The translations under genes were made by a program, and so were the position numbers. A model generated the notes under the pieces. It was not told where the DNA came from. It made no database searches and saw only the letters and a list, made by a program, of their open reading frames with translations. Shown here piece after piece: positions 3,928-58,082 of a stretch of DNA of 60,622 bases. Each line of letters starts with the position of its first letter. Positions within the stretch are counted from its first letter, which is position 1. Origin of the DNA: Pseudomonadota bacterium. Lineage in GTDB: Bacteria > Pseudomonadota > Gammaproteobacteria > UBA12402. The stretch spans positions 1 to 60,622 of the forward strand of contig JBCCYM010000004.1 of assembly GCA_039190005.1 (NCBI GenBank), written 5' to 3'.

Positions 3928-3977
3928 CTCTAAAAACCACAGTGGTCCCTGAGCCTGTCGATAAACTCAGGGACCAC
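3928..3977. repeat. Repeat: MITE-type left end plus collapsed hairpin of the CCCTGAGCCTGTCGAAGGG unit
   Basis: CTCTAAAAACC..GTGGTCCCTGAG-CCTGTCGATAAA-CTCAGGGACCAC, just downstream of the nrdB stop. Confidence 0.75.
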
Positions 3978-3987
3978 CCAAGTCTAT

Positions 3988-5103
3988 TTACTCATCGTCA
4001 TCATCATCCCAGCTTAAGGCACCACCGGTTTGATATTCAGTCACCCGTGTTTCAAAAAAGTTTTTCTCTTTTTTAAGGTCCATGATTTCACTCATCCACG
4101 GGAATGTGTTGGTGGCACCGGCGTATTGTTCTGGCAGACCAATTTGCACACAACGGCGATTGGCAATAAACTGCAAGTAACCTTTAAAACTACCGGCGTT
4201 CATGCCTAAAATACCATGCGGCATGGTATCAATGGCGTATTGGTACTCAAGATCAACGCCTTGATGAATCATATCGATGGCTTCTTGCTGAAATGCCTCG
4301 GTCCACAATTCAGGGTTTTCAATCTTGATTTGGTTGATCACATCAATACCAAAATTCAAGTGCATTGATTCATCACGCAAAATATATTGAAACTGTTCGG
4401 AAACACCTACCATTTTATTGCGACGTCCCATAGACAGTATCTGCGTAAACCCAACATAAAAGAAAATACCTTCAAAAACCACATAGAACGCGATCAGATC
4501 ACGCAACAAACGTTGGTTGGTTTCAAACGTACCGGTTCTGAAATTTGGATCGCCTAAGCTTTGAGTATACGGTAAGGCCCATGCCGCTTTCGTCGCGACC
4601 GATGGTAATTCACGATACATATTAAATACTTCAGCTTCATCCAAACCCAAACTTTGAATACAATACTGATAAGCGTGGGTGTGTATGGCTTCTTCAAACG
4701 CCTGACGCAACAGATATTGACGGCATTCAGGATTGGTAATATGACGATACACCGCCAAAACCAAATTATTCGCCACCAAAGAATCAGCGGTGGAAAAGAA
4801 TCCGAGATTACGTTTGACAATACGGCGTTCGTCTTCAGTGAGACCATTGGGATCACGCCATAAAGCGATATCCGCCGCCATGTTAATTTCCTGTGGCATC
4901 CAGTGATTGGCGCAACCGGTGAGATATTTATCCCAGGCCCACTCATATTTAAACGGCACTAATTGGTTCAGGTCGGCGCGGCAATTGATAATTTTTTTAT
5001 CATCAACCTGCAAACGCCCGGCCCCCATTTCCAACGACTCCAATCCTGTAGCGCCACCTTGATTATTTTCATCCCATTTCATAGTTGTTTCCGTAGAATT
5101 CAT
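3988..5103 (-). CDS. nrdB: Ribonucleotide reductase class Ia beta subunit
   Basis: [16 protein letters not shown] (radical Tyr), FEGIFFY, RDESMH iron ligands; [11 protein letters not shown]-terminus. Confidence 0.97.
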
Positions 5104-5148
5104 GATTACCTCTTTTACATTAACATTTAATTACACTGCCTTCCATGA

Positions 5149-8028
5149 TTATTGACAAGCTTCACATTCTGGATCATCAATCGCGCACGCTTTTGGCGCG
5201 GTATTGACTTTCACCGCGTTCAAGGCACCGGTAGTGACTGTTGATTTTTCAGTACTACTCGCGCCTAGACTACGCATATAATAGGTTGTCTTTAAACCCG
5301 CTGTCCAGGCATGACGATACAGATTATCCAGTTTTTTACCAGAAGGATTTGCCATATATAAATTCAGTGATTGCGCTTGATCTATCCATTTTTGTCGTCG
5401 TGCCGCGCAATCCACTAAATATTTGGCATCCATTTCAAAGGCGGTCGCGTAAATCGCTTTTAAATCATCAGGGACGCGATCAATTTTCTGGACACTACCA
5501 TCATAATATTTCAGATCATTAATCATCACTTCATCCCATAAACCCACCGCTTTTAAATCTCTTATCAGATAAGGATTCACCACCGTGAACTCACCGGACA
5601 TGTTTGATTTAACATAGAGATTCTGATAAGTCGGTTCTATGGATTGCGACACACCACAAATATTGGAAATCGTCGCGGTCGGCGCGATAGCCAATACATT
5701 GGAATTACGCATTCCTTTTTTAACTTTTTCACGCAAGCTATCCCAATCCAGTGTTGAATCGGTATTGATATCTAAATATTGCGCCGGACGTTGTGATGTG
5801 ACGTTTTGTATCGAATCAAGCGGCATAATCCCCTGATTCCACAATGAACCGTCAAAGCTGGCATAACTGCCGCGCTCCTGTGCCAATTCGGCGGAAGCTT
5901 CAATGGCGTAATAGCTTACATACTCCTGATAACGATCGGCAAATTCTACCGCTTTAGTTGACGCGTAAGGAATACGTTTTTTATACAAGCAATCCTGAAA
6001 ACCCATCACGCCAAGACCAATAGGACGATGTTTCATATTGGAATTAAATGCCTGCGGTACGGTATAAAAATTGATGTTAATGACATTATCGAGCATACGA
6101 ATGGCGGTACGCACGGTGTTACGCAATCTTTCAACATCAAAACGATTATTGTCGTCCATGTGTTGCGGCAAATTAATACTGCCAAGATTACATACCGCAA
6201 TTTCTTCTTTAGACGTATTTAGCGTAATCTCTGTACATAAATTAGAACTATGTATCACCCCACAATGTTGTTGCGGCGAACGAAGATTACAAACATCTTT
6301 GAACGTTACCCAAGGATGCCCTGTTTCAAATAGCATCGACAATAATTTACGCCATAAATCTCTGGCAGCAACCACCTTATAGGTTTTTATTTCACCATGA
6401 CGTGCTTTCTCTTCATAAGCGATATACGCTTTCTCAAACGCCTTACCATATAAATCATGTAAGTCAGGCACTTCATTCGGTGAAAATAAGGTCCATGAAC
6501 CTTTTTCATGCACGCGCTGCATAAACAAATCATTTACCCAAGCGGCGATATTCATATCATGAGTACGTCGACGATCATCACCAGTGTTTTTTCGCAGCTC
6601 GAGGAAATCTTCAAAATCTTTATGCCAGATCTCTAAATAAGCGCAAACCGCGCCTTTACGTTTACCGCCTTGGTTGACCGCAATTGCTGTCGCGTCAGCG
6701 ACATTTAAAAAAGGTACCACACCTTGTGACTTACCATTGGTGCCGTGAATATGTGATCCCATCGCCCGCACTGGCGTCCAATCATTACCCAAGCCACCGG
6801 CGTATTTTGACAATAAGGCGTTATCTTTGATCGCGCCATAAATGCCATCAAGATCATCGGGCACTGTTGTCAAAAAACAACTGGAAAGTTGTGGGCGAAT
6901 TGTCCCGGCGTTAAAAAGTGTCGGTGTGGATGACATAAAATCAAAGCTGGAGAGTAAATTATAAAACTCAATGGCGCGCTCTTCTCTATCTTTTTCTTCC
7001 AACGCCAGCCCCATCGCCACACGCATGAAAAATGCTTGCGGCAAGGCATAGCGGGTGCCATGATGATGGAGAAAATAACGATCATAGAGTGTTTGCAAAC
7101 TCAGATAAGTAAACTGATGATCACGTTCCGGTTTGATTGCCGCAGCAATTTTATCTAAATCAAAATCTAACAATTTTTCACTGATGCGATTGAGTTCAAC
7201 ACCACGTTTAAGATAGGCTTTGAAATAGGTTGGATACAAATCAAACATTTGTATAAATGTCGCCTGGCTGCCTATACCGAGGAAATTCAAGGCTTCGCTA
7301 CGCAATTGATCCAACAACAATCGTGCGGTTACATAGCTGTAATCCGGATCTCTTTCAACCAGACTACGCGCGGTGATAATCAATGCCTTACTGATATCAC
7401 GTTCCGGCATCCGATCAAACAGGTTATGCGCCAACTGGTCTAAAATAAGCGCGTTATCCGCCGCTTTAAGACCATCACAGGCTTCATGAACCACTGTTTT
7501 AATACGTTGTTCATCAAGTGGCACTACTTGACCATCCGCCGCGACCACATTGAGTGATGGTGTCTCTGGCGCCGGTTTTGCCTGTTTTTCACGTTCTTTT
7601 TGCCGCTCCTCTCGGTACAACACATAGGTCCGCGCGACTTTCTGTTCACCGGCTCGCATCAAGGCTAATTCAACCTGATCCTGAATTTGCTCAATGCCTA
7701 TGGTACCATCAATTAATACCCGCTCCTTTAACACATCGGTAATCGCGGCGGTCATTTCCTCAACTTTGGCGTGAATGCTTTGCGAGGCTACCGCGTTATC
7801 ACCTTCAACCGCTAAAAAAGCTTTGGTCATAGCGACTCTGATTTTGTTTTCATCATAGGCAACCACATTGCCACGACGATTAATCACTTTTAACGGTTGC
7901 ACCACTGTTTGTGTTTTATCGTCTATGACTTCGTCAATAGTCTCAAAAACCGGTGTTTTTTGATCATTTTTTAACATCACTGATGCTGCTGATGTTGGTG
8001 TATTCATGTTTTTATTCTCCAATTTCAT
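5149..8028 (-). CDS. nrdA: Ribonucleotide reductase class Ia alpha subunit with two ATP-cone domains
   Basis: SSTPTLFNAG, SSNLCTEI, VCNLGSINL, IAPTATIS, GLKTTYY and C-terminal CxxxxxxCEACQ; two N-terminal cones (VINRRGNVV.., VVAADGQVV..). Confidence 0.97.
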   Translation of the reverse strand: MKLENKNMNTPTSAASVMLKNDQKTPVFETIDEVIDDKTQTVVQPLKVINRRGNVVAYDENKIRVAMTKAFLAVEGDNAVASQSIHAKVEEMTAAITDVLKERVLIDGTIGIEQIQDQVELALMRAGEQKVARTYVLYREERQKEREKQAKPAPETPSLNVVAADGQVVPLDEQRIKTVVHEACDGLKAADNALILDQLAHNLFDRMPERDISKALIITARSLVERDPDYSYVTARLLLDQLRSEALNFLGIGSQATFIQMFDLYPTYFKAYLKRGVELNRISEKLLDFDLDKIAAAIKPERDHQFTYLSLQTLYDRYFLHHHGTRYALPQAFFMRVAMGLALEEKDREERAIEFYNLLSSFDFMSSTPTLFNAGTIRPQLSSCFLTTVPDDLDGIYGAIKDNALLSKYAGGLGNDWTPVRAMGSHIHGTNGKSQGVVPFLNVADATAIAVNQGGKRKGAVCAYLEIWHKDFEDFLELRKNTGDDRRRTHDMNIAAWVNDLFMQRVHEKGSWTLFSPNEVPDLHDLYGKAFEKAYIAYEEKARHGEIKTYKVVAARDLWRKLLSMLFETGHPWVTFKDVCNLRSPQQHCGVIHSSNLCTEITLNTSKEEIAVCNLGSINLPQHMDDNNRFDVERLRNTVRTAIRMLDNVININFYTVPQAFNSNMKHRPIGLGVMGFQDCLYKKRIPYASTKAVEFADRYQEYVSYYAIEASAELAQERGSYASFDGSLWNQGIMPLDSIQNVTSQRPAQYLDINTDSTLDWDSLREKVKKGMRNSNVLAIAPTATISNICGVSQSIEPTYQNLYVKSNMSGEFTVVNPYLIRDLKAVGLWDEVMINDLKYYDGSVQKIDRVPDDLKAIYATAFEMDAKYLVDCAARRQKWIDQAQSLNLYMANPSGKKLDNLYRHAWTAGLKTTYYMRSLGASSTEKSTVTTGALNAVKVNTAPKACAIDDPECEACQ

Positions 8029-8092
8029 ATCATTTTATCCATGATTTAGGCAATTTAACTGCCTGAATCCAAACTAATTTCTGCCCTTTTTG

Positions 8093-8136
8093 CCCTTTCG
8101 ATCCTTCGACAGGCTCAGGGCAAGCAGGCTCAGGGG
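8093..8136. repeat. Self-nested REP-like unit
   Basis: CCCTTTCGA-TCCTTCGACAGGCTCAGGGCAAG-CAGGCTCAGGGG. Confidence 0.8.
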
Positions 8137-8171
8137 CTTTTTGGTCTAATATATCAACGCCATCAAAGCAA

Positions 8172-8187
8172 ACCCTATATATGGGGT
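8172..8187. promoter_or_regulatory. NrdR box upstream of nrdAB
   Basis: ACCCTATATATGGGGT: 16-bp near-palindrome resembling the NrdR consensus acaCwAtATaTwGtgt, about 145 bp upstream of nrdA. Confidence 0.7.
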
Positions 8188-8400
8188 TACAATGGCAACG
8201 CTGTAACAAGATAATGAGGTTGAGCAAAAAAATCAAGCAAAAATAATGGGGAAATATTGTGGATAAATTGTGAGCTATTTAAATAGCACCTGTCATCACT
8301 TAATTTACTAAAAACTATTTGCAATATTGCCATAAATGCGTTAGTGAGAATTTTTTAGTGATTATTAATAAAGGCAGTTATATAATGCATCATACAAATT

Positions 8401-8494
8401 AACAATCCAAGTAACATCACTGGATTCCGGTCTTTCGACCTTCCGACAAGCTCAGGGACCGTAAGCTCAGGAACTACCTGCGCTGGAATGACGG
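8401..8494. repeat. Hybrid repeat: ATTCCC-N8-GGGAAT-type REP arm interrupted by nested TTCGACAAGCTCAGGG units
   Basis: CTGGATTCCG..TTCGACCTTCCGACAAGCTCAGGGACCGTAAGCTCAGGAACTA-CCTGCGCTGGAATGACGG. Confidence 0.7.
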
Positions 8495-8522
8495 GAAAAC
8501 AAGAAAAATTTAGAGAAAGAAA

Positions 8523-9722
8523 GTGACTAAAAAAGCTACGTTAACACGGCAAGAAGTAAAAATCCTAGTTATTACCATTATAGTTGCCGCTTGCAGCATG
8601 TTAGGTATCGACATTCATTTGGCTTCCATGCCTCATATCATGCGCTACCTCCATACCGATAAAACTCACATGCAGCAATCGGTATCAATTTATCTTCTCG
8701 GTATGGGCGCTAGTTTATTTTTTTATGGTCCACTTTCTGATCGATATGGACGCAAGCCAATTGTAATATTTGGACTATCACTTGCAGCGTTAGCCAGTTA
8801 TGGCACCATGTTTACTCATACGATTGTTATGTTTCTATTTACTCGATTAATACAAGGGGTTGGTTCAAGTGTTTGTATTGGCGTAGTGCGTACTATTATT
8901 GTCGATGTGTTAAAAAAGCGAACGGCATTATATGCGTCATATTTTACCATGTTTCTCGGCTTATCGCCCTTGCTGGCGCCCGCCATTGGTGGTTATATCC
9001 AGCATGGTTTTGACTGGCAAGCCAATTTTTTTGTTTTAGGCTCAGTAATTGCCCTGGCTTTATTCGTTTATACTGTATTTTGTCCGGAAACTAATCATTA
9101 TAAAAACCCAGATGCCTGTAAGATAAAAACAATTTATCAAAACTATACATTTCTCCTTTGCCACAAAGTATTTATTGGCTGTACGCTGCTAGCTGGTATT
9201 GTCATGGCGGCTAATATGGCGTACGCGACTACAAGTTCTTTTATTCTACAAACACAATTCAATTTAACACCGATTATTTACGGCTGGACTACAAGTATTG
9301 TCGGTATTGGTACGATTATAGGTAAGTTTATAACACCGACAATCATCCATCGTTTTGGTCAACCTAAAACCGTGATCACTGGATTAGTTTTATTATTAAT
9401 TGCTGGTTTATGGTTAGTCCTTTTTATCCTATTTCGATCGATCAATGTCCCACTGATTATGATTGCTGTGATAGCAACATTACTGGCACAAGCATTTGTT
9501 GGGCCAACAATCGGATCAGCCGCCCTTACTCCTTTTCATGATAAAAGAGGCGCAGCTGGCGCATTCTATGGTGGTTTTCAATTGCTAGTGACTTTCTTAG
9601 GCAGCGCGATTATTGGTAGCTTTGCTCATGACGGGATATGGGTGCTGGCAATTGCTTATACTGTCCTTGGACTATTGGGATTAATTATTTATCGCTATGC
9701 CGTGATAAATAGTTTTGATTAA
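8523..9722 (+). CDS. MFS transporter, Bcr/CflA (DHA1) efflux type
   Basis: 12 TM pattern; IDIHLASMP, YGPLSDRYGRKP (motif A), FTRLIQGVG, LAPAIGGY. Confidence 0.88.
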   Translation: MTKKATLTRQEVKILVITIIVAACSMLGIDIHLASMPHIMRYLHTDKTHMQQSVSIYLLGMGASLFFYGPLSDRYGRKPIVIFGLSLAALASYGTMFTHTIVMFLFTRLIQGVGSSVCIGVVRTIIVDVLKKRTALYASYFTMFLGLSPLLAPAIGGYIQHGFDWQANFFVLGSVIALALFVYTVFCPETNHYKNPDACKIKTIYQNYTFLLCHKVFIGCTLLAGIVMAANMAYATTSSFILQTQFNLTPIIYGWTTSIVGIGTIIGKFITPTIIHRFGQPKTVITGLVLLLIAGLWLVLFILFRSINVPLIMIAVIATLLAQAFVGPTIGSAALTPFHDKRGAAGAFYGGFQLLVTFLGSAIIGSFAHDGIWVLAIAYTVLGLLGLIIYRYAVINSFD

Positions 9723-9827
9723 GCTAAAAACCGCGCTGTCCCCTGAGCCTAGCCGAAGGGCGGTCCCTTCGACCCTTCGACAGGCTCAGGGCAAGCAGGC
9801 TCAGGGACCGCTATGCTTTTAGGATTT
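9720..9827. repeat. MITE-like shell containing inverted and nested REP units
   Basis: TAAGCTAAAAACCGC..CCCTGAGCCTAGCCGAAGGG..CCCTTCGACCCTTCGACAGGCTCAGGGCAAGCAGGCTCAGGGACC..CTTTTAGGAT, between convergent MFS and recR. Confidence 0.8.
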
Positions 9828-9829
9828 AA

Positions 9830-10432
9830 CTAAATTTCTTCCCGACCAGAAAAAGCGTGCGCTAAGGTACCACCATCAACATATTCCAACTCACTGCCTA
9901 AAGGCACACCATGAGCGATGCGGGTAATTTTAATGGGAAAATCCTGTAACATACTGCTGATATAATGCGCTGTCGCCTCGCCTTCAACAGTTGGATTGGT
10001 GGCGACAATAATTTCTTTGATAGGTTCATTTTCATCAGCGGCAATATGTTTCAGACGATCCAAACCAAGATCTTGCGGACCAATGCCATCCAAAGGCGAT
10101 AAATGTCCCATCAGCACAAAATAACGACCATTATAGCTCGCGGTTTGTTCAATCGCCAAAACATCCGCGGGTGACTCAACCACGCATAACACTTGTTTAT
10201 CACGTTTATCACTGACGCAGAGTTTACAATAATCACTTTCACTGAACGTACGACAGAACTGGCAATGCCCGACTGATTTCATTGCCTGACTCATGGTTTC
10301 AGCCAGTTTTAAAGCACCGGTGCGGTTGCGTTGTAATAAAAAAAATGCCATGCGCTGCGCGGATTTATTACCAACCCCAGGTAATAAACGTAGCGCTTGA
10401 ATGAGCTCATCAAGTAATGGGCTAAATGCCAT
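9830..10432 (-). CDS. recR: Recombination mediator RecR
   Basis: [12 protein letters not shown]4 zinc finger, [18 protein letters not shown]. Confidence 0.97.
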
Positions 10433-10439
10433 GGTGTAA

Positions 10440-10781
10440 TTATTTAATAAAGTTATCGAAACCGGGCGGTAGATCTAACTCTTTGGCGACATCGGCCATC
10501 TTATCCTTTGAAGCCTGTTTAAGATTATCAGCGGCGTTGTTAACCGCGCTGGCGATAAGATCCTGAATCATTTCTTTATCTTGTTCTTGCCATAAACTGT
10601 CATCAATGTTGACCGTGGTCAGATGATAGGCGCCATCCATCGTCACTTCCACCAAGGGTTTTGCGGTCACCGGCGCTTTCCCAGTGACGGTAATTGAACG
10701 GGTAGCTTCCTTAGCCTCGCTCATTTTTTCCTGCACCGCGCGTGCTTTCTCCATTAATTCATTAAAGTTTGGAATATTCAT
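10440..10781 (-). CDS. ybaB: YbaB/EbfC nucleoid-associated protein
   Basis: [26 protein letters not shown]; lies between dnaX and recR. Confidence 0.9.
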
Positions 10782-10849
10782 GTTAACCTATACTGTCTTA
10801 TTAGTTACCCAGAAAATCATAACCCACAATATCAACAAAAACAAGTATT

Positions 10850-12449: not shown

Positions 12450-12558
12450 GGGGTCAAATTAGCCGAGCCTCAGCACACAATACCAAAGATACCGTTGCTT
12501 CCTTCCGGACCTGGCGGGGTTTTCAATGAATTGTTGCAAGGAGACCAATCTGACCACC
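12450..12558 (-). ncRNA. ffs: Signal recognition particle 4.5S RNA
   Basis: Conserved CCAGGTCCGGAAGGAAGCA core; pairing ends GGTCAGATTGG/CTAATTTGACC; conserved position upstream of dnaX. Confidence 0.92.
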
Positions 12559-12638: not shown

Positions 12639-12726
12639 CGTCATTCCCGCGCAGGCGGGAATCCAGGAGAAAAATGTGTATGCCTGTAGTTTTGCTCCCT
12701 GGATTCCCGCCTGCGCGGGAATGACG
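12639..12726. repeat. Intact CGTC-type REP doublet (REPIN; ATTCCC-N8-GGGAAT core)
   Basis: CGTCATTCCCGCGCAGGCGGGAATCCAGG-spacer-CCTGGATTCCCGCCTGCGCGGGAATGACG, perfect 29-bp arms. Confidence 0.9.
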
Positions 12727-14547: not shown

Positions 14548-14601
14548 CGTCATTCCTGTGCCCCTTCGACTAGCTCAGGGACCACCTGTGCTAGAATGAC
14601 G
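14548..14601. repeat. Hybrid REP: one CCCTTCGA..CTCAGGGACC unit inside CGTCATTCC..GAATGACG arms
   Basis: CGTCATTCCTGTGC-CCCTTCGACTAGCTCAGGGACCA-CCTGTGCTAGAATGACG. Confidence 0.8.
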
Positions 14602-24266: not shown

Positions 24267-24308
24267 ATTTACTCGTCATTCCCGCGTAGGCGGGAATGAC
24301 GAGTAAAT
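24267..24308. repeat. Collapsed single-hairpin CGTC REP
   Basis: ATTTACTCGTCATTCCCGC-GTAG-GCGGGAATGACGAGTAAAT, perfect 19-bp stem. Confidence 0.85.
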
Positions 24309-24331
24309 TGATTTATTTTCAGATTAGTAAT

Positions 24332-25603
24332 ATGTTAACAGAAGAAAATTCAACACCGACAGTAACCGTCACTGAACTTAATCAGCAGGTAAAAAGTCTG
24401 TTGGAGTCAGGGTTTGACAGTTTATGGATAGAAGGCGAGATTTCTAATTTTTCCTGTCCGGCATCGGGGCATTGGTATTTTTCACTTAAAGATGACAAAT
24501 CACAAGTCCGCTGCGCCATGTTTCGCGGCCGCAATGGCTTAGCCAAATTCCTACCGGAAAATGGCTTGCATGTGTTATTACATGCCAAAGTCAGTTTATA
24601 TACTGGACGCGGTGATTATCAACTGATTGTCGATCACATTGAAGAAGTCGGTGCCGGCGCCTTACAACGCGCTTTTGAGCAGTTAAAGAAAAAACTACTA
24701 GCTGAGGGTTTATTTGAACAACAGTACAAAAAACCGCTGCCAACTATTCCTAAACAACTCGGCATTATTACCTCGGCAACCGGCGCGGCCTTGCATGATA
24801 TTTTACATGTGTTAAAAAAACGTTGTCCATCGTTGCCGGTTATTATTTATCCCAGTCTGGTACAAGGTGATGACGCGCCGACAGCATTGATTAAAGCCAT
24901 TCAATTAGCTGACAAACGTCAGGAATGTGACGCCTTAATTATCGCGCGTGGCGGCGGATCATTGGAAGATTTATGGGCGTTTAATGATGAAACATTAGCG
25001 CGCGCTATTTTTGCCGCCACCATTCCCATTGTTTCCGGTGTCGGTCATGAAGTCGATTTTACCATTACCGATTTTGTTGCTGATTATCGCGCGCCCACAC
25101 CCTCAGCGGCAGCGGAATTCATCAGTCCCGATCAACGCGAACTGCAAAGTAATTTGAAGCGTTACTATAACACGCTTAATTATCATATGATTAACAGCAT
25201 CAGTCATTATCAACAAACCGTTGATTATCTCGAAACTCGTCTTAAACAGCAGCATCCGCAACAGTATTTACAAAATCAAAAAGAATTGCTGGCAAAAACT
25301 GTTCAAAGTTTGCGACTGGCGCAACTGCGTGTGATTGAAAATAAACAAGGGCAGTTCCAACGTTTAGCGCACAGCTTAAACACATTGAGTCCACTGGCAA
25401 CACTGTCACGCGGTTATAGCATTACTCGAAAAATAAGGACTGATAAAAAAGCGGGTGCTATTATTTATTCAACCGATGATATAAACATAAAAGATCAACT
25501 GCGGGTTAAATTGCATCAGGGTGAATTTGATTGTACTGTTTCGTCTATAACTTCGTCATTCCCGCGACCCTTCGACAGGCTCAGGGAACAATCCAGGGAA
25601 TAA
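24332..25603 (+). CDS. xseA: Exodeoxyribonuclease VII large subunit
   Basis: [54 protein letters not shown]; last ~16 aa come from a repeat. Confidence 0.95.
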
Positions 25604-25702
25604 AACCACAAGCATAAACATTTTTCTCCTGGATTCCCGCCCTTCGACCCTTCGACAGGCTCAGGGCAAGCAGGCTCAGGGACCACCTGCGCGGGAATGA
25701 CG
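25554..25702. repeat. REP doublet with inserted units in both arms; overlaps the xseA 3' end
   Basis: CGTCATTCCCGCGA-CCCTTCGACAGGCTCAGGGAAC-AATCCAGG ... CCTGGATTCCCG-[nested unit]-CCTGCGCGGGAATGACG. Confidence 0.88.
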
Positions 25703-36160: not shown

Positions 36161-36237
36161 CGCCATTCCCGCGCAGGCGGTCCCTGAGCCTGTCGAAGGG
36201 CGGTCCCTGAGCCTGTCGAAGGGTCGCGGGAATGACG
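36161..36237. repeat. Hybrid REP with two tandem inserted units
   Basis: CGCCATTCCCGCGCAGG-CGGTCCCTGAGCCTGTCGAAGGG x2-TCGCGGGAATGACG. Confidence 0.88.
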
Positions 36238-36289
36238 AATAATGGAGGCAAAAATAACAGAGAAAATATATTTTAGCATAGTTATAAAG

Positions 36290-40734: not shown

Positions 40735-40754
40735 TTCTCTATCAACTTTATTAA

Positions 40755-40993
40755 ACCTAAAAACCGCAATGGTCCCTGAGCCTGCCGAAGAGCGAACCCT
40801 GAGCCCGCCGAAGGGCGGTCCCTGAGCCCGTCGAAGGGTGGTCCCTGAGTTCGTCGAAGGGCATAACTGGCCTTTCGAGCATATTTCCGGGCTTCGACTA
40901 GCTCAGCCATCTATACCTTAAAACCTGTCAAAGGATAGTCCCTGAGCCTGCTTGCCCTGAGCCTGTCGAAGGGTCGAAGGGTGGTTTTTAGTT
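40755..40993. repeat. MITE-like element filled with REP units (four 23-bp tandem copies, a 60-bp module, a nested unit)
   Basis: Ends ACCTAAAAACC / GGTTTTTAGTT flanked by TAA on both sides; tandem units start at 40771, 40794, 40817 and 40840. Confidence 0.88.
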
Positions 40994-41043
40994 TAAAAAA
41001 TAATTATACTATACCGTAATTATAATCATAGAGACTTATCATC

Positions 41044-41879: not shown

Positions 41880-42275
41880 TTACATATCACCCAATAGCCG
41901 CCGCGCGGCTTCTGATAATAAAGCTGATCGACTCTTATGCTGACTCTGCGCGACATGGTCAATCGCGTTCAATAAGGCGCTATCAATTGTAATATTAACC
42001 CGATGCGCTTTGCCACTAGGTGAAACAATCGCGATAAATAACGGTATACAGCCCTTCGCGTCTTTCAGTTTCATTACACTATCAAGTGATGTTGGTTGAG
42101 GAATGGACTCCTGAGCTTCAATCATTAACTCAATATGCGCAATTAATCCCTCACGGGTATTTTTTCTGGCCAGCTCAAGTGTTTTTCCTGCCGATCCAAA
42201 TCCAGGAAAGTCCGGTATAAAAACAGTATAGCCATTACCTACTTTTTCAGCTAACGCAATGTACTCGATGATCAT
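41880..42275 (-). CDS. hicB: HicB antitoxin with C-terminal RHH domain
   Basis: YTVFIPDFPGFGSAG..LARKN..EGL; RVNITIDSALL..SRSALL. Confidence 0.9.
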   Translation of the reverse strand: MIIEYIALAEKVGNGYTVFIPDFPGFGSAGKTLELARKNTREGLIAHIELMIEAQESIPQPTSLDSVMKLKDAKGCIPLFIAIVSPSGKAHRVNITIDSALLNAIDHVAQSQHKSRSALLSEAARRLLGDM

Positions 42276-44467: not shown

Positions 44468-44602
44468 ACCCACAACCACAGCGGTCCCTGAGCTCGTCGA
44501 AGGGTATAGCAAATTTTTCGAAAGCAAGCTTTGGCTTCGACAAGCTCAGGAACCACCCTTCGACCCTTCGACAGGCTCAGGGCAAGCAGGCTCAGGGACC
44601 GC
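44468..44602. repeat. Degenerate MITE left end with inverted and nested REP units
   Basis: Follows the sohB TAA: ACCCACAACC..GGTCCCTGAGCTCGTCGAAGGG..GGCTTCGACAAGCTCAGG..CCCTTCGACCCTTCGACAGGCTCAGGGCAAGCAGGCTCAGGGACC. Confidence 0.85.
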
Positions 44603-51252: not shown

Positions 51253-51405
51253 TTTTGTTTCCGCTTAAATTTATCTTTTGTAATTACGAGACATTACAAA
51301 ATATCAAATAAAATGTATCTGTCAACTATTTTTGATAATGAAAACTGGCATTTTGTTCAAGATAACTTATAATAACGCGCTGGGTATAAATATTACAATA
51401 CTATT

Positions 51406-51846
51406 ATGAATGAAACACAATTACTGACATTTATCAGCCAACATTGGTTACTGGCAGCGCTATTTGTCATTCTGCTAGCCATGATTCTGAGCTATGACCG
51501 CGTTTTTGGCAGTCATGGGAAATCAGGCATATCGCCTCAGCAATTAGTGACGTTAATTAATCGACATGACGCTGTTATTGTTGACTTACGCCAGCGAGAA
51601 GCGTTTCGACAAAAGCATATCATTGACGCCATTAATATTCCGACCGCGCAACTTGAAAAAAGTATTGATAAGCTCAATCAATATGAAGGCAAACCGATTA
51701 TTTTAGTGCAAAACAATGATACACAAATCAATAAACAGATAAAACTGTTACAGAGCAAGCTGACCTCCGAAGTAAAATTTCTGATCGGCGGTTTTCGTGC
51801 CTGGCAAGACGCAGGTTTACCTACTCACAAAGGTCAAAAGAAATGA
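51406..51846 (+). CDS. Rhodanese-like protein (YibN type)
   Basis: N-terminal TM, VIVDLR..F..HIIDAINIP, LIGGFRAWQDAGLP; precedes grxC-secB-gpsA. Confidence 0.88.
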   Translation: MNETQLLTFISQHWLLAALFVILLAMILSYDRVFGSHGKSGISPQQLVTLINRHDAVIVDLRQREAFRQKHIIDAINIPTAQLEKSIDKLNQYEGKPIILVQNNDTQINKQIKLLQSKLTSEVKFLIGGFRAWQDAGLPTHKGQKK

Positions 51847-52103
51847 ATGTGGTGATTTATAGCACCGCACGATGCCCATCTTGCACTCGCGCTGAGAATT
51901 TATTACAATCTAAAGGTATTGCTTACGATAAAATTCTTGTTGATAATGATATTGACAAACGCAACGAGATGTTACAACGCAGCAACGGGCGACGCACAGT
52001 GCCACAAATCTTTATTAACGAGCAACATATCGGCGGTTATGATGATCTGGCAGAACTGAATCGCAGTGGTAAACTTGATCAATTACTTAATCAGGAAAAA
52101 TAA
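51843..52103 (+). CDS. grxC: Glutaredoxin 3
   Basis: CPSC, TVPQIFI, IGGYDDL. Confidence 0.92.
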   Translation: MNVVIYSTARCPSCTRAENLLQSKGIAYDKILVDNDIDKRNEMLQRSNGRRTVPQIFINEQHIGGYDDLAELNRSGKLDQLLNQEK

Positions 52104-52104
52104 A

Positions 52105-52605
52105 ATGGCAGACAATCAAACACAACAAAACACGCAAACACAACAGAATATTGATATTCAACGTATTTATATTAAAGATTTATCACTGGAAACCCCCGGC
52201 GCACCAGATGTATTTTTGCAACAAGAGCAGTGGGAACCGCAAACCAATATTGATCTCAATATTCAACACAAACAATTAAAAGATAATCACTACGAAGTTG
52301 TGTTACGCATTACCGTGACCATTACCAATAAAGAACAAGCGGTACTGGTGACTGAAGTCAAGCAAGCGGCGATTTTTAATATCACTGGCTTTAACGCTGA
52401 ACAGCTCGATCATGTGCTTGGCGCTTACTGTCCCAGCTTACTCTTTCCTTACGCCAGAGAAGCGATTTCCAGTATGTCTATACGCGCGACCATGCCACCG
52501 ATTAATCTAGCGCCATTGAATTTTGACGCGATATATCAGCAACAAAAAGCAAACGCAGCGAATAATCAGAGCGAAGCCAAAGCAAATTCACAAACAACCC
52601 ATTAG
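52105..52605 (+). CDS. secB: Protein-export chaperone SecB
   Basis: IQRIYIKDLSLETP, CPSLLFPYARE, LAPLNFDAIY. Confidence 0.96.
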   Translation: MADNQTQQNTQTQQNIDIQRIYIKDLSLETPGAPDVFLQQEQWEPQTNIDLNIQHKQLKDNHYEVVLRITVTITNKEQAVLVTEVKQAAIFNITGFNAEQLDHVLGAYCPSLLFPYAREAISSMSIRATMPPINLAPLNFDAIYQQQKANAANNQSEAKANSQTTH

Positions 52606-52617
52606 TCCTGTTCATTT

Positions 52618-53619
52618 ATGACAACAGTTGCTATCTTAGGTGCTGGCTCCTGGGGTACGGCATTGGCAATTCACCTTGCCAACTATCATCAGCAAGTCTA
52701 TCTGTGGACCGCAAGCCCTCAGCAAGTGCGACAACTGTCCGATGAGCGCTGCAACACATTATACTTGCCTGGCATTCATCTACCGGATCAGATTACTATA
52801 GAAAGTGATTTAGAGGCAGTACTTCATCAAGCCAATGATATTATTTGCGCTGTTCCCAGTCACGCGTTTAAAGCAGTGATCAAAAAATGCCATGATCACA
52901 TCGGTGAAAATAATACCCATTACCGATTCGCTTCCGCCTGCAAAGGTATTGATCCATCATCCTGTTTGCTACTCAGCGACATCGCCAAGAAAATATTAGG
53001 CAATCTGCCATTAGCGGTATTATCTGGTCCATCATTCGCTAAAGAATTAGCGCGAGCCATGCCGACAGCTATTGTCATTGCCGCTAATAATGATACGTTT
53101 ACCAATGATTTAGTAAGCTATTTTAATCATGGCAAGTTACGCGTCTACCGCAATCGCGACATGATCGGCGTACAAGTTGGTGGCGCGTTAAAAAACATCT
53201 ATGCCATTGCCGCCGGTATTTCCGATGGACTAGGTTTTGGCAGCAATGCCCGTTCCGCGATTATTACTCGCGGTCTGGCTGAAATGACCCGACTAGGCAC
53301 GGCAATGGGTGCTGAACAAAAAACCTTTATGGGACTTTCCGGACTTGGCGATTTAGTACTGACCTGCACTGATAATCAATCACGCAACCGCCGTTTCGGA
53401 TTGGCTTTGGGACAAGGCAACAGTGTCATTGACGCTGAAAAACGCATTGCCCAAGTGATAGAAGGTAAAACAACCGCTGAACATGTTACCGAATTAGCTA
53501 AAAAACACCATATCGAGATGCCGATTGCTGAGCAAGTCCATCAATGTATCAAAGGACAAACCTCAGCACAGCAGGCGTTACAATCGTTGTTAGCCAGAAA
53601 AACTAAAAATGAGTTTTAG
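52618..53619 (+). CDS. gpsA: NAD(P)H-dependent glycerol-3-phosphate dehydrogenase
   Basis: GAGSWGTALA, LSGPSFA, LKNIYAI, GLGDLVLTC, SRNRRFG. Confidence 0.97.
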   Translation: MTTVAILGAGSWGTALAIHLANYHQQVYLWTASPQQVRQLSDERCNTLYLPGIHLPDQITIESDLEAVLHQANDIICAVPSHAFKAVIKKCHDHIGENNTHYRFASACKGIDPSSCLLLSDIAKKILGNLPLAVLSGPSFAKELARAMPTAIVIAANNDTFTNDLVSYFNHGKLRVYRNRDMIGVQVGGALKNIYAIAAGISDGLGFGSNARSAIITRGLAEMTRLGTAMGAEQKTFMGLSGLGDLVLTCTDNQSRNRRFGLALGQGNSVIDAEKRIAQVIEGKTTAEHVTELAKKHHIEMPIAEQVHQCIKGQTSAQQALQSLLARKTKNEF

Positions 53620-53703
53620 ATCTAAATAGTTTAGAGTTATCATACCAATCGAGCAAAAGAACTGCTTATATTACATACACAATAAAAAAAGAGGTCAAAT
53701 AAT

Positions 53704-54156
53704 ATGAAAAATTTAACGGTATTAACAACTACATTTTTGCTAACAGTTGCAGTCTCTATCCAAATTTCCGCAACACCGAGCAATTACTTACCAAAACGTT
53801 GCCCCGAACCTTCAACTTTTGGCGATAAAATAAATATGTATCGCGCTGGCAGCAAAGGCACTCATAGCGGCTATTATTTCACTTCGACTGTTAACGGCAT
53901 TGATTTTGCCAGTCCCGCTTATGAATATGAATCAGGATACGCAAAAAAACCTAGCAGATTAATCGCTGTTCACAGCGAGCCCAATCCTAAAGGAAGACCT
54001 AGTGAAAACATTACTTGCTTTTATGAAAATGGTGTAGCAATGTCAAATGACGGTGATGAATGGGGTATGATTAAATGGAGAAACGCTCAGCATAAATTCT
54101 TTTGTCTCAAAACCGCTGGCTCAGATGACTGCCAATTCTGGTTTGTCAGAAATTAA
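53704..54156 (+). CDS. Secreted four-cysteine hypothetical protein (DUF3757-like pattern)
   Basis: Signal peptide; CP..CFY..C..DCQF cysteine spacing. Confidence 0.6.
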   Translation: MKNLTVLTTTFLLTVAVSIQISATPSNYLPKRCPEPSTFGDKINMYRAGSKGTHSGYYFTSTVNGIDFASPAYEYESGYAKKPSRLIAVHSEPNPKGRPSENITCFYENGVAMSNDGDEWGMIKWRNAQHKFFCLKTAGSDDCQFWFVRN

Positions 54157-54321
54157 ACCTTAAAACCGCAGTTGGCGGCAAGATGAGAGTGCAACAGATT
54201 GATTTGGATAGTGAAATAAAAATTTGCGTAGTCACCTTGTTGGTGATGAGCAAAATTTTTATTTTATTAGGCAAATTAAGATGTTGTGCTCTCGCTTGGC
54301 GATCAACTGCGGTTTTAAGGT
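54157..54321. mobile_element. 165-bp palindromic MITE with TAA target duplication
   Basis: TAA|ACCTTAAAACCGCAGTTG ... CAACTGCGGTTTTAAGGT|TAA (18-bp perfect TIR), imperfectly self-complementary interior. Confidence 0.8.
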
Positions 54322-54415
54322 TAAATAGCGTCAATAATAGTTTTACTCATATACACTTGGTTAATGAAATAAACACTTTTATATTTGAAAACAAAGCGTT
54401 AGCCCCCTAATCAAA

Positions 54416-54486
54416 CTGTTGCAAAATTTGCAACAGCTTAAAAGGGACTGTTGAAATCTAAATTGTTTTAGTATTTCAACAGTCCC
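54416..54486. repeat. Two adjacent short palindromes resembling collapsed IS-end pairs
   Basis: CTGTTGCAAA-A-TTTGCAACAG (54416-54436) and GGGACTGTTGAAAT..ATTTCAACAGTCCC (54444-54486). Confidence 0.55.
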
Positions 54487-54575
54487 AAAAAGAAGGCGAT
54501 AAAAACGTTAGACGGACGATTGATTATTATAATCTAAAAGATGGATTCTAGATCTTAATGTTTTAGATTTAGCAT

Positions 54576-54821
54576 TTAGAATACCAAATGATTTAAGAAA
54601 TGCATTAAATCTTCACTTTTAACTTCAGTTTTTTGTTTATCTATGATATTCTTTGCATTATCTTGCAATAGTCCCCCGGAATATTTGATCCATAATTCTT
54701 TATCTCGAACTTCTTTTATTTAAAATTCGCGACCACTTGACGTTTTTCCTCTTATTTCACGATTAATTACATTAGATAATTGTTTTCTAAAGGTGGCAAC
54801 AAGTGAGACTATTATTGTGAT
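54576..54821 (-). pseudogene. Decayed AT-rich reading frame of unknown family
   Basis: 82 codons (ITIIVSLVATFRKQLSNVINREIRG..EF*IKEVRDKELWIK..HLVF*) with one in-frame stop and no start codon. Confidence 0.3.
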
Positions 54822-54919
54822 TCAAATAATAATTTGTAAGATAATAGGGTTGAAAAATCCATAAATTAAGAAATACCAATAGTAAAAACAAGTCAGTTTA
54901 GTTAACAGGAGAATATTTT

Positions 54920-55879
54920 ATGTCAGAAATCATCATTTATAAAGCTAAAGACGGGCATATTGAGTTGAAAGTCAATTTGTCTGAAGAAACAGTTTGGCTT
55001 ACACAGAAGCAACTCTCTGATTTATTTGATAAAAACGTCAAAACCATTTCTGAACACATTAATAATATCTTTAATGAAGGTGAATTGGATGAAAGTTCAG
55101 CTATCCGGAATTTCCGGATAACTGCTCTAGATGGAAAGTTATATAATACTAAGCACTATAATTTAGATGCCATTATTTCTGTTGGTTATCGTGTTCACTC
55201 GAAACGTGGTACAGAATTTAGACAATGGGCGACTCAAATGTTAAAAGATCACCTTATTAGTGGCTATAGCATCAATGAAAAACGTTTGGCTGAACGTGGC
55301 ATCAAAGAACTACAACAATCCATCGAATTACTGCAAAAAACACTGACCCAGAATGAATTAGTCAATGACGTTGGCGTTGAGACAATTCAATTAATCATGA
55401 GCTACACCAAAACATGGCAGTTATTATTAGCTTACGATGAAGATGACTTAAAACTGCCGGAACCAAATAACGCATCTACCGCGGAACTAACATATGAATT
55501 CGCCATCAAAGCAATTGCGACATTGAAATGCGACCTTGCCGAAAGAAATGAAGCCACCGCCTTATTCGGCAATGAGCGCGAGCATGGTCTTCAAAGTATT
55601 CTAGGCAACATTAATCAAACCTTTGCCGGCGAAGTACTTTATAAAACAGCAGAAGAACGCGCGGCCCACTTGCTCTATTTTATTATAAAAGATCATCCTT
55701 TTACTGATGGTAATAAACGGATTGGCTGTCTTATTTTTTTACTTTATCTTAAACTTGAAAGTATTGTCATCAAACTAAATGATAACGGTCTAGTCGCGCT
55801 CGCCCTACTCATTGCTGAAAGCAATCCTGGTCAAAAAGATCTGATGATTCGTTTAATTGTTAATTTACTCATGGATTAA
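54920..55879 (+). CDS. RhuM-domain plus Fic/Doc-domain protein
   Basis: N-terminal ETVWLTQKQLSDLF..YNLDAIISVGYRVHS..FRQWA; C-terminal Fic motif HPFTDGNKRIG. Confidence 0.9.
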   Translation: MSEIIIYKAKDGHIELKVNLSEETVWLTQKQLSDLFDKNVKTISEHINNIFNEGELDESSAIRNFRITALDGKLYNTKHYNLDAIISVGYRVHSKRGTEFRQWATQMLKDHLISGYSINEKRLAERGIKELQQSIELLQKTLTQNELVNDVGVETIQLIMSYTKTWQLLLAYDEDDLKLPEPNNASTAELTYEFAIKAIATLKCDLAERNEATALFGNEREHGLQSILGNINQTFAGEVLYKTAEERAAHLLYFIIKDHPFTDGNKRIGCLIFLLYLKLESIVIKLNDNGLVALALLIAESNPGQKDLMIRLIVNLLMD

Positions 55880-55882
55880 TAA

Positions 55883-55941
55883 ACCTAAAAACCGCCCTTC
55901 GACCCTTCGACAAGCTCAGGGCAAGCAGGCTCAGGGACCAC
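55883..55941. repeat. MITE left end plus nested REP unit
   Basis: TAA|ACCTAAAAACCG-CCCTTCGACCCTTCGACAAGCTCAGGGCAAGCAGGCTCAGGGACCAC. Confidence 0.85.
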
Positions 55942-55970
55942 TGTTACTAAAATCGACAATTACAGAAACA

Positions 55971-57557
55971 TCATCCTACCGGATGATCAGCCAAAAATTC
56001 AGACAAACGTTGTTTAAACAGGTTCTTAGGCAGTTTTATGTTAATCGCCATCACATAGGTGACAACACATATTAACAAAATATAAACCGAACTCGATTGG
56101 AGTGAAAGTTTAGCCGTGCCGCCAAAGTCACCTAAATAACTGATTAAAAACATACCGGCAATATAGGGAATCAACCATAAGCCCAATGAAAACTCTTTTG
56201 GCCATAAGGTTTTATGACGGAACATCGCCTGAACAAATAAACAGAAGAAAACAATGCCCATGAAAATGGTTAAATGCCAAACCGTTGACCAACCACTCCA
56301 GTAAATAAGCAAGGCTGAAAAATAATAAGATAACAAATTGATCCCCATATAAATCAATCGTCTCAGTTTTGAATGATTTTGTTTATTGTAGATATAAAAA
56401 ATATGCATCACAATCGGTCCAAACGCGTAAGTTAAAGCCTGAACGGAAACAATCATCGACACCATTTCTTGCCAGCCATGAAAAGGCAAAAAGAACAACA
56501 TCGACACCACAAAATTGACAATTAAACTGACATGCGGCACGCCATAGCGATTGAGTTTTTTCATTATCTTGGGCACCATACCAATTTCGGCAATCGCGTA
56601 ACTTATACGCGCTGTCTCCACGGTAGTAATAAACGCGGCGCCAACAGGAGAAATCACCGAGTCGGTATAAAGTAATAACGCTAACCACCCCAAACCAAGC
56701 AAAGAAGCCAAAGTCACTAAAGGACTGGTTTGCCCAACCACCTGCATATCCTGCCAGCCCTGATGAATTGACACGGCCGGCAAAGAACCAGTAAACGCTG
56801 TTTGTAGGGCAACATACATAATCACAATACAGATTGTCGAACCAATGATGCCAAACGGAATCGTGCTTTTAGGTTTTGCCACTTCGGCGCTAATATTGAC
56901 AATCCCAAGAAAACCGACATACGAAAATAGAATGCCGCCATTACTAATTGCCGCTAACAAACCGGTCATGCCAAAAGGCATAAACCCACCATGACTGGAA
57001 AAATTGGATAGGCTAAAATGATCAAAAAATAAAACAATAATTGTAACAATCGGAATAATTGTTTTCCATCCGCCCAAAACATTACTCACATGTTTTGCCA
57101 GCGCGATGCCAAAATAGTTAAACAACACCAACGCCAACATAATAATGGTCGCGACAAGCAACCCTAACGCGGTTAATCGGTCATTGACAAAAAGTCCCGG
57201 AAAGAAATGCGACGAGTATTGCAAGGCTGATTGCGTTTCGATAGGTTGATAAAATGTCGTCCCCAACCATGTTAGCCAGCCAACAATACGCGACACCGAC
57301 ACACCTTGTGAAATCGACGCGTACTGTATGATGCCACCTGAAGCCGGAAATGATGAGCATAAGACAATAAACGGCGCGGCGATGACAATAATCATCACCC
57401 CACCCAATATCCATGAGAGGCTCGCCGCAGGGCCAGCAATTTTGAGCGAATAAAATGGACCAAACAACCAACCGGAACCGACAGCCGAATTAATGCCGAA
57501 AAGCAGCAGAGAAAGTTTACCGATATTCTTTTTTATTTCATTGGTCATTTTAATCAT
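55971..57557 (-). CDS. APC-family amino acid permease (YveA-like)
   Basis: GINSAVGSGWLFG, AGPAASLSW, FSYVGF..AEVAKP, NRYGVP; about 14 TM segments. Confidence 0.88.
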   Translation of the reverse strand: MIKMTNEIKKNIGKLSLLLFGINSAVGSGWLFGPFYSLKIAGPAASLSWILGGVMIIVIAAPFIVLCSSFPASGGIIQYASISQGVSVSRIVGWLTWLGTTFYQPIETQSALQYSSHFFPGLFVNDRLTALGLLVATIIMLALVLFNYFGIALAKHVSNVLGGWKTIIPIVTIIVLFFDHFSLSNFSSHGGFMPFGMTGLLAAISNGGILFSYVGFLGIVNISAEVAKPKSTIPFGIIGSTICIVIMYVALQTAFTGSLPAVSIHQGWQDMQVVGQTSPLVTLASLLGLGWLALLLYTDSVISPVGAAFITTVETARISYAIAEIGMVPKIMKKLNRYGVPHVSLIVNFVVSMLFFLPFHGWQEMVSMIVSVQALTYAFGPIVMHIFYIYNKQNHSKLRRLIYMGINLLSYYFSALLIYWSGWSTVWHLTIFMGIVFFCLFVQAMFRHKTLWPKEFSLGLWLIPYIAGMFLISYLGDFGGTAKLSLQSSSVYILLICVVTYVMAINIKLPKNLFKQRLSEFLADHPVG

Positions 57558-57560
57558 TGA

Positions 57561-57772
57561 ACCTAAAAATCGCAGCGCCCTCTGAGCCCGTCAAAAGGCA
57601 TAACAAGCTCTCCGAGAATATTCTCTGGCTTCGACAAGCTCAGCCATCTATAAGGGTGGTCCCTGAGCTCGTCGAAGGGCGGTCCCTGAGCCTGCTTGCC
57701 CTGAGCCTGTCGAAGGGTCGAAGGGCGGTCCCTGAACCTGCTTGCCCTGAGCTTGTCGAAGGGTCGAAGGGT
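57561..57772. repeat. MITE left end, 60-bp module, tandem and nested REP units
   Basis: TGA|ACCTAAAAATCGC.. then GGCATAAC..GGCTTCGACAAGCTCAGCCATCTATA and two CCTG-CTTGCCCTGAGC(C/T)TGTCGAAGGG-TCGAAGGG nested units. Confidence 0.88.
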
Positions 57773-57782
57773 TGGTAGCAAA

Positions 57783-57837
57783 ATGAGAGTGTAACAGATT
57801 GATTGGGATAGTGACATAAAAAATTGGCGCACTCACC
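57783..57837. repeat. Partial second copy of the interior of the 54157-54321 MITE
   Basis: ATGAGAGTGTAACAGATTGATTGGGATAGTGACATAAAAAATT vs ATGAGAGTGCAACAGATTGATTTGGATAGTGAAATAAAAATTT. Confidence 0.75.
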
Positions 57838-57924
57838 CTTATGTACAAATCAAAGGGACATTATCCTGATGCCATCTATTGTATATGTCTTTAATGAGGC
57901 TGTTATCCGTCATCCCCAAATAGG

Positions 57925-58082
57925 CGGTCCCTGAGCTTGTCGAAGGGTTGAAGGATGGTCCAGCTTTTCAAAAGGCATAACAAGCGCTCCAAGAACATTC
58001 TTTGGCTTCGACAAGCTCAGCCATCTATAAGGGCGGTCCCTGAACCTGCTTGCCCTGAGCTTGTCGAAGGGTCGAAGGATGG
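57925..58082. repeat. REP cluster duplicating the 57593-57772 arrangement
   Basis: GGTCCCTGAGCTTGTCGAAGGG, 60-bp module at 57970-58029, nested unit CCTGAACCTGCTTGCCCTGAGCTTGTCGAAGGGTCGAAGG. Confidence 0.85.

Follow-up and report, generated by a model that had tools for sequence, protein, structure and literature searches.

INTRODUCTION

SsnA, a 94-aa nuclease of the GIY-YIG family, binds single-stranded DNA that forms the NTS hairpin and cleaves it a few bases upstream of the hairpin; cleavage, unlike binding, depends on the bases that immediately precede the palindrome, and the SsnA gene is typically flanked by the NTS motif (Chenal et al. 2025, PMC11893778). Among the repetitive extragenic palindromes (REPs), those of the GTAG type are associated with REP-associated tyrosine transposases (RAYTs), and a passing remark of 2013 places GTAG-15, GTAG-23 and CGTC-1 repeats at the centre of other palindromes (PMC3733652). 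Here we analyse a 60,622-nt stretch of a marine gammaproteobacterial genome (GenBank assembly GCA_039190005.1, contig JBCCYM010000004.1, positions 1 to 60,622; hereafter the window), which holds a 23-nt hairpin repeat, unit B, that lies inside its own copies and inside other repeats. To our knowledge, the mode of spread is not known for most of the short hairpin repeat families that fill bacterial intergenic DNA. Judged from its sequence, the B family is very widespread, REP-like and undescribed, and the searchable literature yielded no description of the B core, of its translations or of nested REPs. We propose that B is a minimal 23-nt hairpin element that inserts into hairpin loops and is likely moved by a UPF0213-like GIY-YIG nuclease, and we put the probability of this reading at about 0.6.

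The B repeats resemble the NTS/SsnA system in being short directional hairpins, intergenic and present in hundreds of copies, that flank a ~95-aa single-domain GIY-YIG gene. The two differ in that B has a 4-bp stem and a conserved 11-nt loop, whereas NTS has a long ATTCCC..GGGAAT stem and a short loop. Without this palindrome B fails the degenerate SRM/NTS motif, and the nuclease clade paired with B is UPF0213-like, with only ~30% identity to an NTS-flanked Ssn-type protein. Neither loop insertion nor self-nesting nor chimeras of two repeat types are described in PMC11893778. With the REP, BIME and REPIN-RAYT systems B shares tiny extragenic palindromes, inverted doublets and mosaic clusters, as well as an enzyme gene that is encoded elsewhere and is itself repeat-flanked, but the GTAG head is missing from B, ~2 Mb of B-bearing loci revealed no adjacent Y1 transposase, and we found no report of REPs inserting into themselves at one loop position. 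The repeats observed in palindrome centres (PMC3733652) are a precedent for hairpin repeats landing mid-hairpin; their hosts are unrelated palindromes and the term ‘nested’ is not used there, whereas the host of B is its own copy, entered at a fixed loop position and to several levels.

Elements of the IS200/IS605 family (IS608 TnpA) are likewise strand-specific, with hairpin-defined ends, a short target that is not duplicated and a single-stranded DNA substrate, but they rely on a covalent tyrosine mechanism and carry their own transposase gene, whereas B is 23 nt long and associated with a hydrolytic nuclease. The NIMEs of Neisseria and nested miniature inverted-repeat transposable elements (MITEs) also form intergenic mosaics of several repeat families, with elements within elements. 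However, NIMEs interleave their units side by side and nested MITEs use TA-type targets with duplications, whereas B enters a hairpin loop without duplication and targets itself. B would be, on this comparison, a hairpin repeat with a GIY-YIG partner whose new behaviour is self-nesting into loops at a fixed point.

RESULTS

Unit B and its nested composites

Unit B (GGTCCCTGAGCCTGTCGAAGGG) is a directional module consisting of a 4-nt leader, a 4-nt stem arm, the 11-nt loop GAGCYTGTCGA and the second 4-nt stem arm; 16 matches are found in the window at up to three mismatches, where shuffled sequences lead one to expect none. The core can be written NNCT-GAGCYTGTCGA-AGNN, preceded by a 4-nt leader that across loci reads NGGT, TTCG, GTCA or CYTG; in the window the leader of unit B is cggt or tggt and its stem CCCT/AGGG. 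A tolerant scan recovered ~25 true B hairpins in the window, all of them intergenic (one overlaps the end of an open reading frame, ORF) and mixed in orientation, with 15 plus and 13 minus. Some stand alone; others form tandem arrays of 23-nt period (36179-36223 and 40771-40861), REPIN-like inverted doublets that make long hairpins (40824-40908, 44483-44555, 57584-57645 and 57950-58022) or 46-nt nested composites (Table 1). Extended stems of more than 4 bp were considered and are not a general feature of B. A scan against Rfam gave no match to B.

Ten nested composites are found in the window, each with the inner unit sitting at GAGCYTG^TCGA in the loop of the outer unit, in the layout leader-X1-GAGCYTG [cttg-X2-GAGCYTGTCGA-Y2] TCGA-Y1. 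Nine of them (8094-8139, 9765-9810, 25640-25685, 40936-40981, 44556-44601, 55895-55940, 57680-57725, 57726-57771 and 58034-58079) are of one composite type, with CCCT/AGGG stems and the inner leader CTTG; these are the nine sites at which a preliminary description of the window, made from the letters by a model, had reported B nested in itself at a fixed point. The tenth, at 8431-8476, is added here and is of a different type, its inner leader being CGGT. The 4-nt spacing and the right-hand junction are present in all ten, and no free-standing unit with a CTTG leader is found in the window.

The composite in the window mainly spreads as a whole unit, since it occurs as a single insert in an NTS loop (below) and as a tandem pair (57680-57771), and since the variant pair GAACCTG with GAGCTTG is common to copies at two loci. 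More than one nesting event is nevertheless indicated by the different nest at 8431-8476 and by a CTTG-in-CTTG triple nest, which is a loose end in contigs of the source run and presumably comes from the window genome; the Logan contigs of this run, the only source of the window, break at repeats and so reveal no polymorphism at them.

Insertion of B into NTS/dRS3 and MITE hosts

The second repeat of the window, family A, has four matches, with intact copies at 12639-12662, 12703-12726 and 24274-24301. The stretch 12639-12666 reads CGTCATTCCCGCGCAGGCGGGAATCCAG and fits the NTS consensus CGTCATTCCCGCGMAVGCGGGAATCYRG at every position, including the ATTCCC-N8-GGGAAT core, and the copy that had been described as intact at 12639 is indeed so. 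On this fit to the consensus, family A is a member of NTS/dRS3, the hairpin targeted by the SsnA nuclease. The preliminary description had tied CGTC-type REPs to HUH transposases or small GIY-YIG nucleases; the link to HUH transposases is at odds with the literature, which places RAYTs with GTAG REPs (PMC3733652) and NTS with SsnA (PMC11893778). The recurring A/B junctions reported there are borne out: each junction string is exact at two loci (25559/36216 and 25679/36168), with degenerate forms at 8420 and 14548.

A head-to-head NTS dimer with empty loops (12639-12726) has a filled paralogue at 25540-25700, and alignment of the two shows the first NTS loop to be interrupted cleanly by the 46-nt composite as one piece, with no loss, no duplication and a junction ambiguity of 2 nt; the second loop is filled by a B unit. 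A similar pair exists for the shells of repeats with ACCTAAAAACC ends (10 matches in the window versus 1.4 expected), which have the terminal inverted repeats, short non-coding core and several copies of a MITE. The MITE at 54156-54322 has a second copy, filled with B, at 57560, with related ends at nine further sites, and B entered after ..CGCAG, a point that is the loop of a small CCGC/GCGG hairpin. Because these paralogue pairs give clean empty and filled sites, B in NTS and B in MITE are true insertions, in agreement with the earlier placement of B inside family A and inside MITE shells.

The B unit in the second loop of the filled dimer aligns, in a comparison of 25540-25600 with 12690-12726, to NTS as TTCCC-[TGA]-GCCTG-[TCGAAGGGT]-CGCGGG, and NTS (reverse strand) and B have TTCCC..GCCTG in common; this may reflect patchy conversion or a distant kinship of the two families. 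The 3' end of a 435-aa ORF (24296-25603) enters this B/NTS repeat, its last codons and stop codon being repeat DNA. The GCACAGG direct repeat at 14548-14600 is the sole case in the window that resembles a target duplication.

Nesting across phyla

A generic nested pattern, GARCYTG-N8-GAGCYTGTCGA-N4-TCGA, in which the loop letters are fixed and the stems free, was searched with one genome per species and is present in at least 109 genomic stretches from at least 13 phyla (groups taken from record titles): Planctomycetota, Binatia, Bacteroidota, Latescibacterota, Actinomycetota, Chloroflexota, Spirochaetota, Pseudomonadota, Acidobacteriota, Verrucomicrobiota, Patescibacteria, Gemmatimonadota and Bacillota. 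Among the matches listed, the inner and outer 5' stems differ in 79 of 103 unique composites. For these 79, nested pairing gives 7.2 of 8 Watson-Crick pairs versus 4.8 of 8 for crossed pairing, with nested pairing the better in 64, equal in 15 and worse in none. Nests of three levels with three different stems in the right order are seen in L108, where they read CCCT[CGCT[CCGT..ACGG]AGCG]AGGT, and in L061 and L023, and four-level nests are also present. Because inner stems differ independently of outer ones and every stem matches its own partner, nesting is very unlikely to derive from local duplication; the stem sequences support a recurrent, loop-directed insertion that arose many times across genomes. 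The preliminary description had offered targeted insertion or the spread of composites as explanations of identical junctions, and both hold, the former across genomes and the latter in the window.

Mismatched pairs are more often G.T than A.C (31 versus 11), an excess which suggests that selection on the hairpin acts at the level of one strand. CAYRTQ01 is the best-sampled genome, and eight of its ten nests have the same inner unit in eight different outer units, as repeated insertion, or copying, of one master unit predicts. The leader of the inner unit is also distinctive. Across loci L001-L109 and the window, CCTG or CTTG precedes 50 of ~120 inner units versus 2 of ~85 non-nested units, and none of 39 non-nested units in the loci with CCTG/CTTG nests. 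By this distribution the CCTG/CTTG leader is a signature of the nested position and is not derived from a donor family. A target-site duplication as the source of the 4-nt inner leader was considered and rejected, as the leader does not follow the C/T of the outer loop. Such headless inner units may be immobile alone, by analogy with the requirement of SsnA for the bases just 5' of the palindrome in cutting, and this would fit their absence as free copies.

Right halves (TCGA and the following 4 nt) are often in excess, which we attribute to slippage in an 8-nt tandem as a secondary event. Beside nests the 8-nt right half TCGAAGGG multiplies as a microsatellite does, to as many as nine copies in L038 (~5700-5790), and also in L048, L087 and L039. 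Beside the nest in L236 (2470-2620) lie four 33-nt units with a TGGT-GAGCCTGTCGA-ACCA hairpin, and in L057 (20-100) an 11-nt GGTTCGATGTA array continues the run of right halves.

On viral contigs the nested pattern was not found; these carry more than 120 solitary B cores, none of which adjoins a GIY-YIG gene, and a search there for inverted B loops ~300-360 nt apart gave only chance matches inside genes. A BLAST search of plasmids with a B cluster returned two weak matches.

A GIY-YIG nuclease bracketed by B hairpins

The window was correctly described as lacking a mobiliser: it contains no GIY-YIG motif, and no transposase was found among 20 ORFs scanned against Pfam. Likewise, no recurrent ORF or transposase-like family is found near B in the ~2 Mb of B-bearing loci. 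We turn to other genomes, from whose metagenomic sequences 120 randomly sampled GIY-YIG genes were drawn with a degenerate DNA motif for LY[TI]G[IV]T..RR..[EQ]H. As a positive control, this sample reproduces the published Ssn link, with eight Ssn-type genes of the 120 having a dRS3/NTS palindrome within 400 nt. Two of the 120 (L305 and L280) are bracketed by B hairpins.

In L280 (Ga0210057_1000010, minus strand, ~5650-6120) the order is tRNA, B(-), a gene for a 92-aa nuclease, B(+) and a duplicated tRNA 3' end. The cassette is inserted at GGT^TCGAATCC (GGT^TCGAA) in the T-loop of the tRNA, just 5' of TCGA, and the tRNA is restored. L305 belongs to a Bacteroidota clade in which the C terminus reads ..TSTGS(V/G/A) in 19 of 120 cluster representatives, a tail that a reverse B hairpin encodes. 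In Elizabethkingia meningoseptica (L366, 1470-1825) a 97-aa GIY-YIG gene lies between murG and murC in a cell-division gene cluster, in the layout murG, TGTCA-B(+), 8 nt, gene, 8 nt, B(-)-TGACA, murC. The GIY-YIG gene of a Sphingobacterium is bracketed in the same way, with inverted B units whose leaders point outward in both genomes, and in L371-375 arrays of B stand on both sides of the gene. Altogether, a small single-domain GIY-YIG gene is flanked by B on both sides in L305, L280, L366, L367 and L371-375, all from genomes other than that of the window.

The B-bracketed nuclease matches Pfam PF01541 and receives no name from NCBIfam; its best solved relatives are the UPF0213 proteins 1ZG2 and 1YWL, and it is 30% identical to an NTS-flanked Ssn-type protein. 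When E. coli YhbQ was used as a seed, only enterobacterial relatives were returned. We know of no function for this clade, for which structures have been solved. By gene arrangement, a nuclease-hairpin pair parallel to SsnA/NTS exists for B in other genomes. Because inverted B hairpins bracket its gene in other bacteria, the UPF0213-like nuclease, a relative of SsnA, is most likely the mobiliser of B, an action that we infer, and it is plausible that a mobiliser is encoded elsewhere in the window genome.

Polymorphism among strains

Presence and absence of B at one locus can be followed in a gut Treponema metagenome-assembled genome, where a 56-nt hairpin stands behind a 341-aa aminotransferase gene and consists of a species-specific shell, ATCAAATGG..CCATTTGAT, with two-level nested B. 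In another sample the identical gene is followed by nine unrelated bases instead. In a comparison of contigs from eight runs, the locus is empty in two runs of two studies and filled in at least four runs. Copy number also varies: around the gene of an identical nuclease protein in L371-375, there are 4 or 5 B modules upstream and between 5 and 10 downstream, depending on the assembly. Two other loci, one of Bacteroidales and one of Prevotella, did not differ between assemblies.

DISCUSSION

Our results are consistent with a mechanism in which new B copies would enter small GC-rich hairpins where these are single-stranded, in their loops. The four contexts in which B insertions are seen are all loops of such hairpins: B's own (GAGCYTG^TCGA), that of NTS, that of the CCGC/GCGG hairpin at the MITE end and, for the gene-carrying version of another bacterium, the tRNA T-loop. 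These loops may be hit since only loops would be single-stranded in extruded cruciforms or folded single strands, and exactly such hairpin loops would be open to a nuclease that cuts single strands only. By analogy with SsnA, the nuclease would bind B as a hairpin in one strand and cleave that strand a few bases to the 5' side; a fixed distance between the bound hairpin and the cut 5' of it agrees with the constancy of the 4-nt leader. Insertion into the loop would spare the ends of the outer unit, and the composite could then be remobilised in one piece; this would account for dolls of two to four levels, tandem composites and chimeras with other repeats.

Several observations weigh against this proposal. 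Enzymes of the GIY-YIG family are hydrolytic and have no DNA-joining activity, so that insertion would need an extra ligation or copying step, and the manner in which the insert is joined we can only infer. DNA folding predicts the outer stem, while the 4-bp inner hairpin is not cleanly predicted. As for the nuclease, the window has no GIY-YIG motif, no recurrent gene or nuclease is found within 8 kb of the 109 nested sites, none lies near B units on viral contigs, and the two B-flanked genes are a low share of the 120 sampled. One Baltobacteraceae homologue, the one tested, has no B hairpins, and B-derived tails are absent from the top 150 YhbQ-like proteins. As for the nesting itself, strain comparisons yielded no locus with both naked and nested alleles, and the constancy of the 4-nt spacing and of the right-hand junction is unbiased only in the window, since both were preset in the pattern used for the other genomes. 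Finally, that nine of the ten window nests are of one type is compatible with a single founding nest here.

Such a founding event, after which the 46-nt composite was amplified with no ongoing nesting in the window genome, is the alternative that survives best, and we regard it as possible though rather unlikely. The absence of free CTTG units, the uniform CCCT/AGGG stems and CTTG leader of the nine nests, the single clean insert in the NTS loop, the tandem pair and the GAACCTG/GAGCTTG variants common to two copies are what it predicts; the different nest at 8431-8476 and the CTTG-in-CTTG triple nest, presumably of the window genome, are not. It concerns the window alone and does not conflict with a general mechanism, as nesting arose many times in other genomes. 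A single ancestral composite had been set against ongoing nesting in the preliminary description, and this stands in part for the window and fails across genomes, where the nests are independent.

It is improbable that B is moved by a tyrosine HUH transposase, either a RAYT or an IS200/IS605-like enzyme, with the GIY-YIG genes as cargo or neighbours. Enzymes of this kind can both cut and join single-stranded DNA beside hairpins, and their insertions fall 3' of a short target that is not duplicated, as in IS608. They would supply the joining activity that the GIY-YIG model lacks, and the inverted doublets of B resemble REPINs. However, B is without the GTAG head of RAYT-linked REPs (PMC3733652), the B-bearing loci hold no recurrent transposase-like family in ~2 Mb, and throughout one clade GIY-YIG genes have inverted B hairpins at a distance of 8 nt from both start and stop.

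Still less probable is that B and its nested form are host-selected structures, such as protein-binding sites or RNA and transcript-end hairpins, rather than traces of mobility. The loop is strongly conserved across phyla while the stem covaries, the bias of G.T over A.C would suit a strand-specific or RNA-level structure, and many copies lie just 3' of stop codons or between convergent genes. Against this, B has no Rfam match and is mixed in orientation relative to genes, a stem of 4 bp closing a loop of 11 nt makes a poor terminator, B is inserted within other repeats, and near-identical strains are polymorphic for its presence and copy number. Least credible of all is an origin of the AABB order by replication slippage of half-units (15-nt left and 8-nt right) under selection for balance and without insertion: right halves do expand alone, to as many as nine copies in L038, and unbalanced forms with extra right halves are common, but an excess of left halves is rare, local duplication would yield identical stems where 79 of 103 composites have differing stems, each with its own partner in nested order (64 wins and 0 losses), and three different stems nest in the right order.

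The repeated use of one loop position in at least 13 phyla bears on how hairpin repeats spread, and the candidate pairing of a concrete enzyme with a DNA site carries the Ssn/NTS finding of 2025 over to another type of hairpin. Loop targeting may also be the rule behind mosaic repeat clusters and chimeras between families, and a nuclease cutting single-stranded DNA at a defined place in or beside B would add a new specificity to the tools for such DNA. Tentatively, and with more doubt than confidence, we raise the stronger possibility that B, defined by no more than a 4-nt leader and a 19-nt hairpin, is the smallest known mobile DNA, moved in trans by a ~95-aa UPF0213-type single-strand nuclease and only into hairpin loops, its own included. 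This would amount to a mode of transposition outside the known transposase classes, combining a nuclease with host joining and using loops at cruciforms or replication forks as targets. It would give UPF0213 proteins a function, and would account for nested A^nB^n structures and mosaics while genes are spared.

Repeat features of the window and neighbouring genes

Table 1. Positions of B-containing and host repeats along the window
Feature	Position	Strand	Context
B left half with its own inverted copy, 12-bp stem	3941..3978	+	directly 3' of the stop codon of the ribonucleotide reductase small-chain gene
Nested B composite of 46 nt, outer unit GCCCCT.., leader of inner unit cttg	8094..8139	-	
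Degenerate NTS hairpin, loop with a different nest: outer tagtTCCT..AAGA, inner cggtCCCT	8425..8492	-	
Shell with AAxCTAAAA ends holding nested B (9765-9810) and a degenerate inverted B	9721..9825	-	
Head-to-head NTS/dRS3 dimer, loops empty; empty paralogue of 25540-25700	12639..12726	+	
Degenerate NTS, one B in loop, flanked by 7-nt direct repeat GCACAGG	14548..14600	-	
Solitary palindromic NTS/dRS3 hairpin	24274..24301	+	
NTS dimer, both loops filled: 46-nt composite (25640-25685) and single B (~25568-25589)	25540..25700	-	
Shell hairpin with 25-bp stem, apex a single diverged B loop	33190..33258	+	between convergent genes
NTS hairpin, loop with a tandem pair of B units (23-nt period)	36161..36240	+	
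Shell end, four tandem B, inverted B doublet (REPIN-like), second shell with nested B (40936-40981)	40754..40994	+	
Inverted B doublet (44483-44555) adjoining nested composite (44556-44601, minus strand)	44483..44601	+	
MITE without B, 19-bp terminal inverted repeats (AACCTTAAAACCGCAGTTG); empty paralogue of 57560 onward	54156..54322	+	
Nested composite abutting one shell end	55882..55940	-	
MITE copy with ~200-nt B cluster after ..CGCAG: inverted doublet, one B, two tandem composites (57680-57771)	57560..57835	+	
B unit with extra right half, inverted doublet, nested composite (58034-58079)	57926..58079	+	

The sole Rfam match in the window is a small bacterial signal recognition particle RNA gene (RF00169, 69 bits) at 12454-12550, ~90 nt before the empty NTS dimer. 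A YafQ/ParE-type toxin (3250-3534), a HicB-like antitoxin (41880-42275) and a RhuM/Fic-domain protein (54920-55879) are encoded near repeat clusters.

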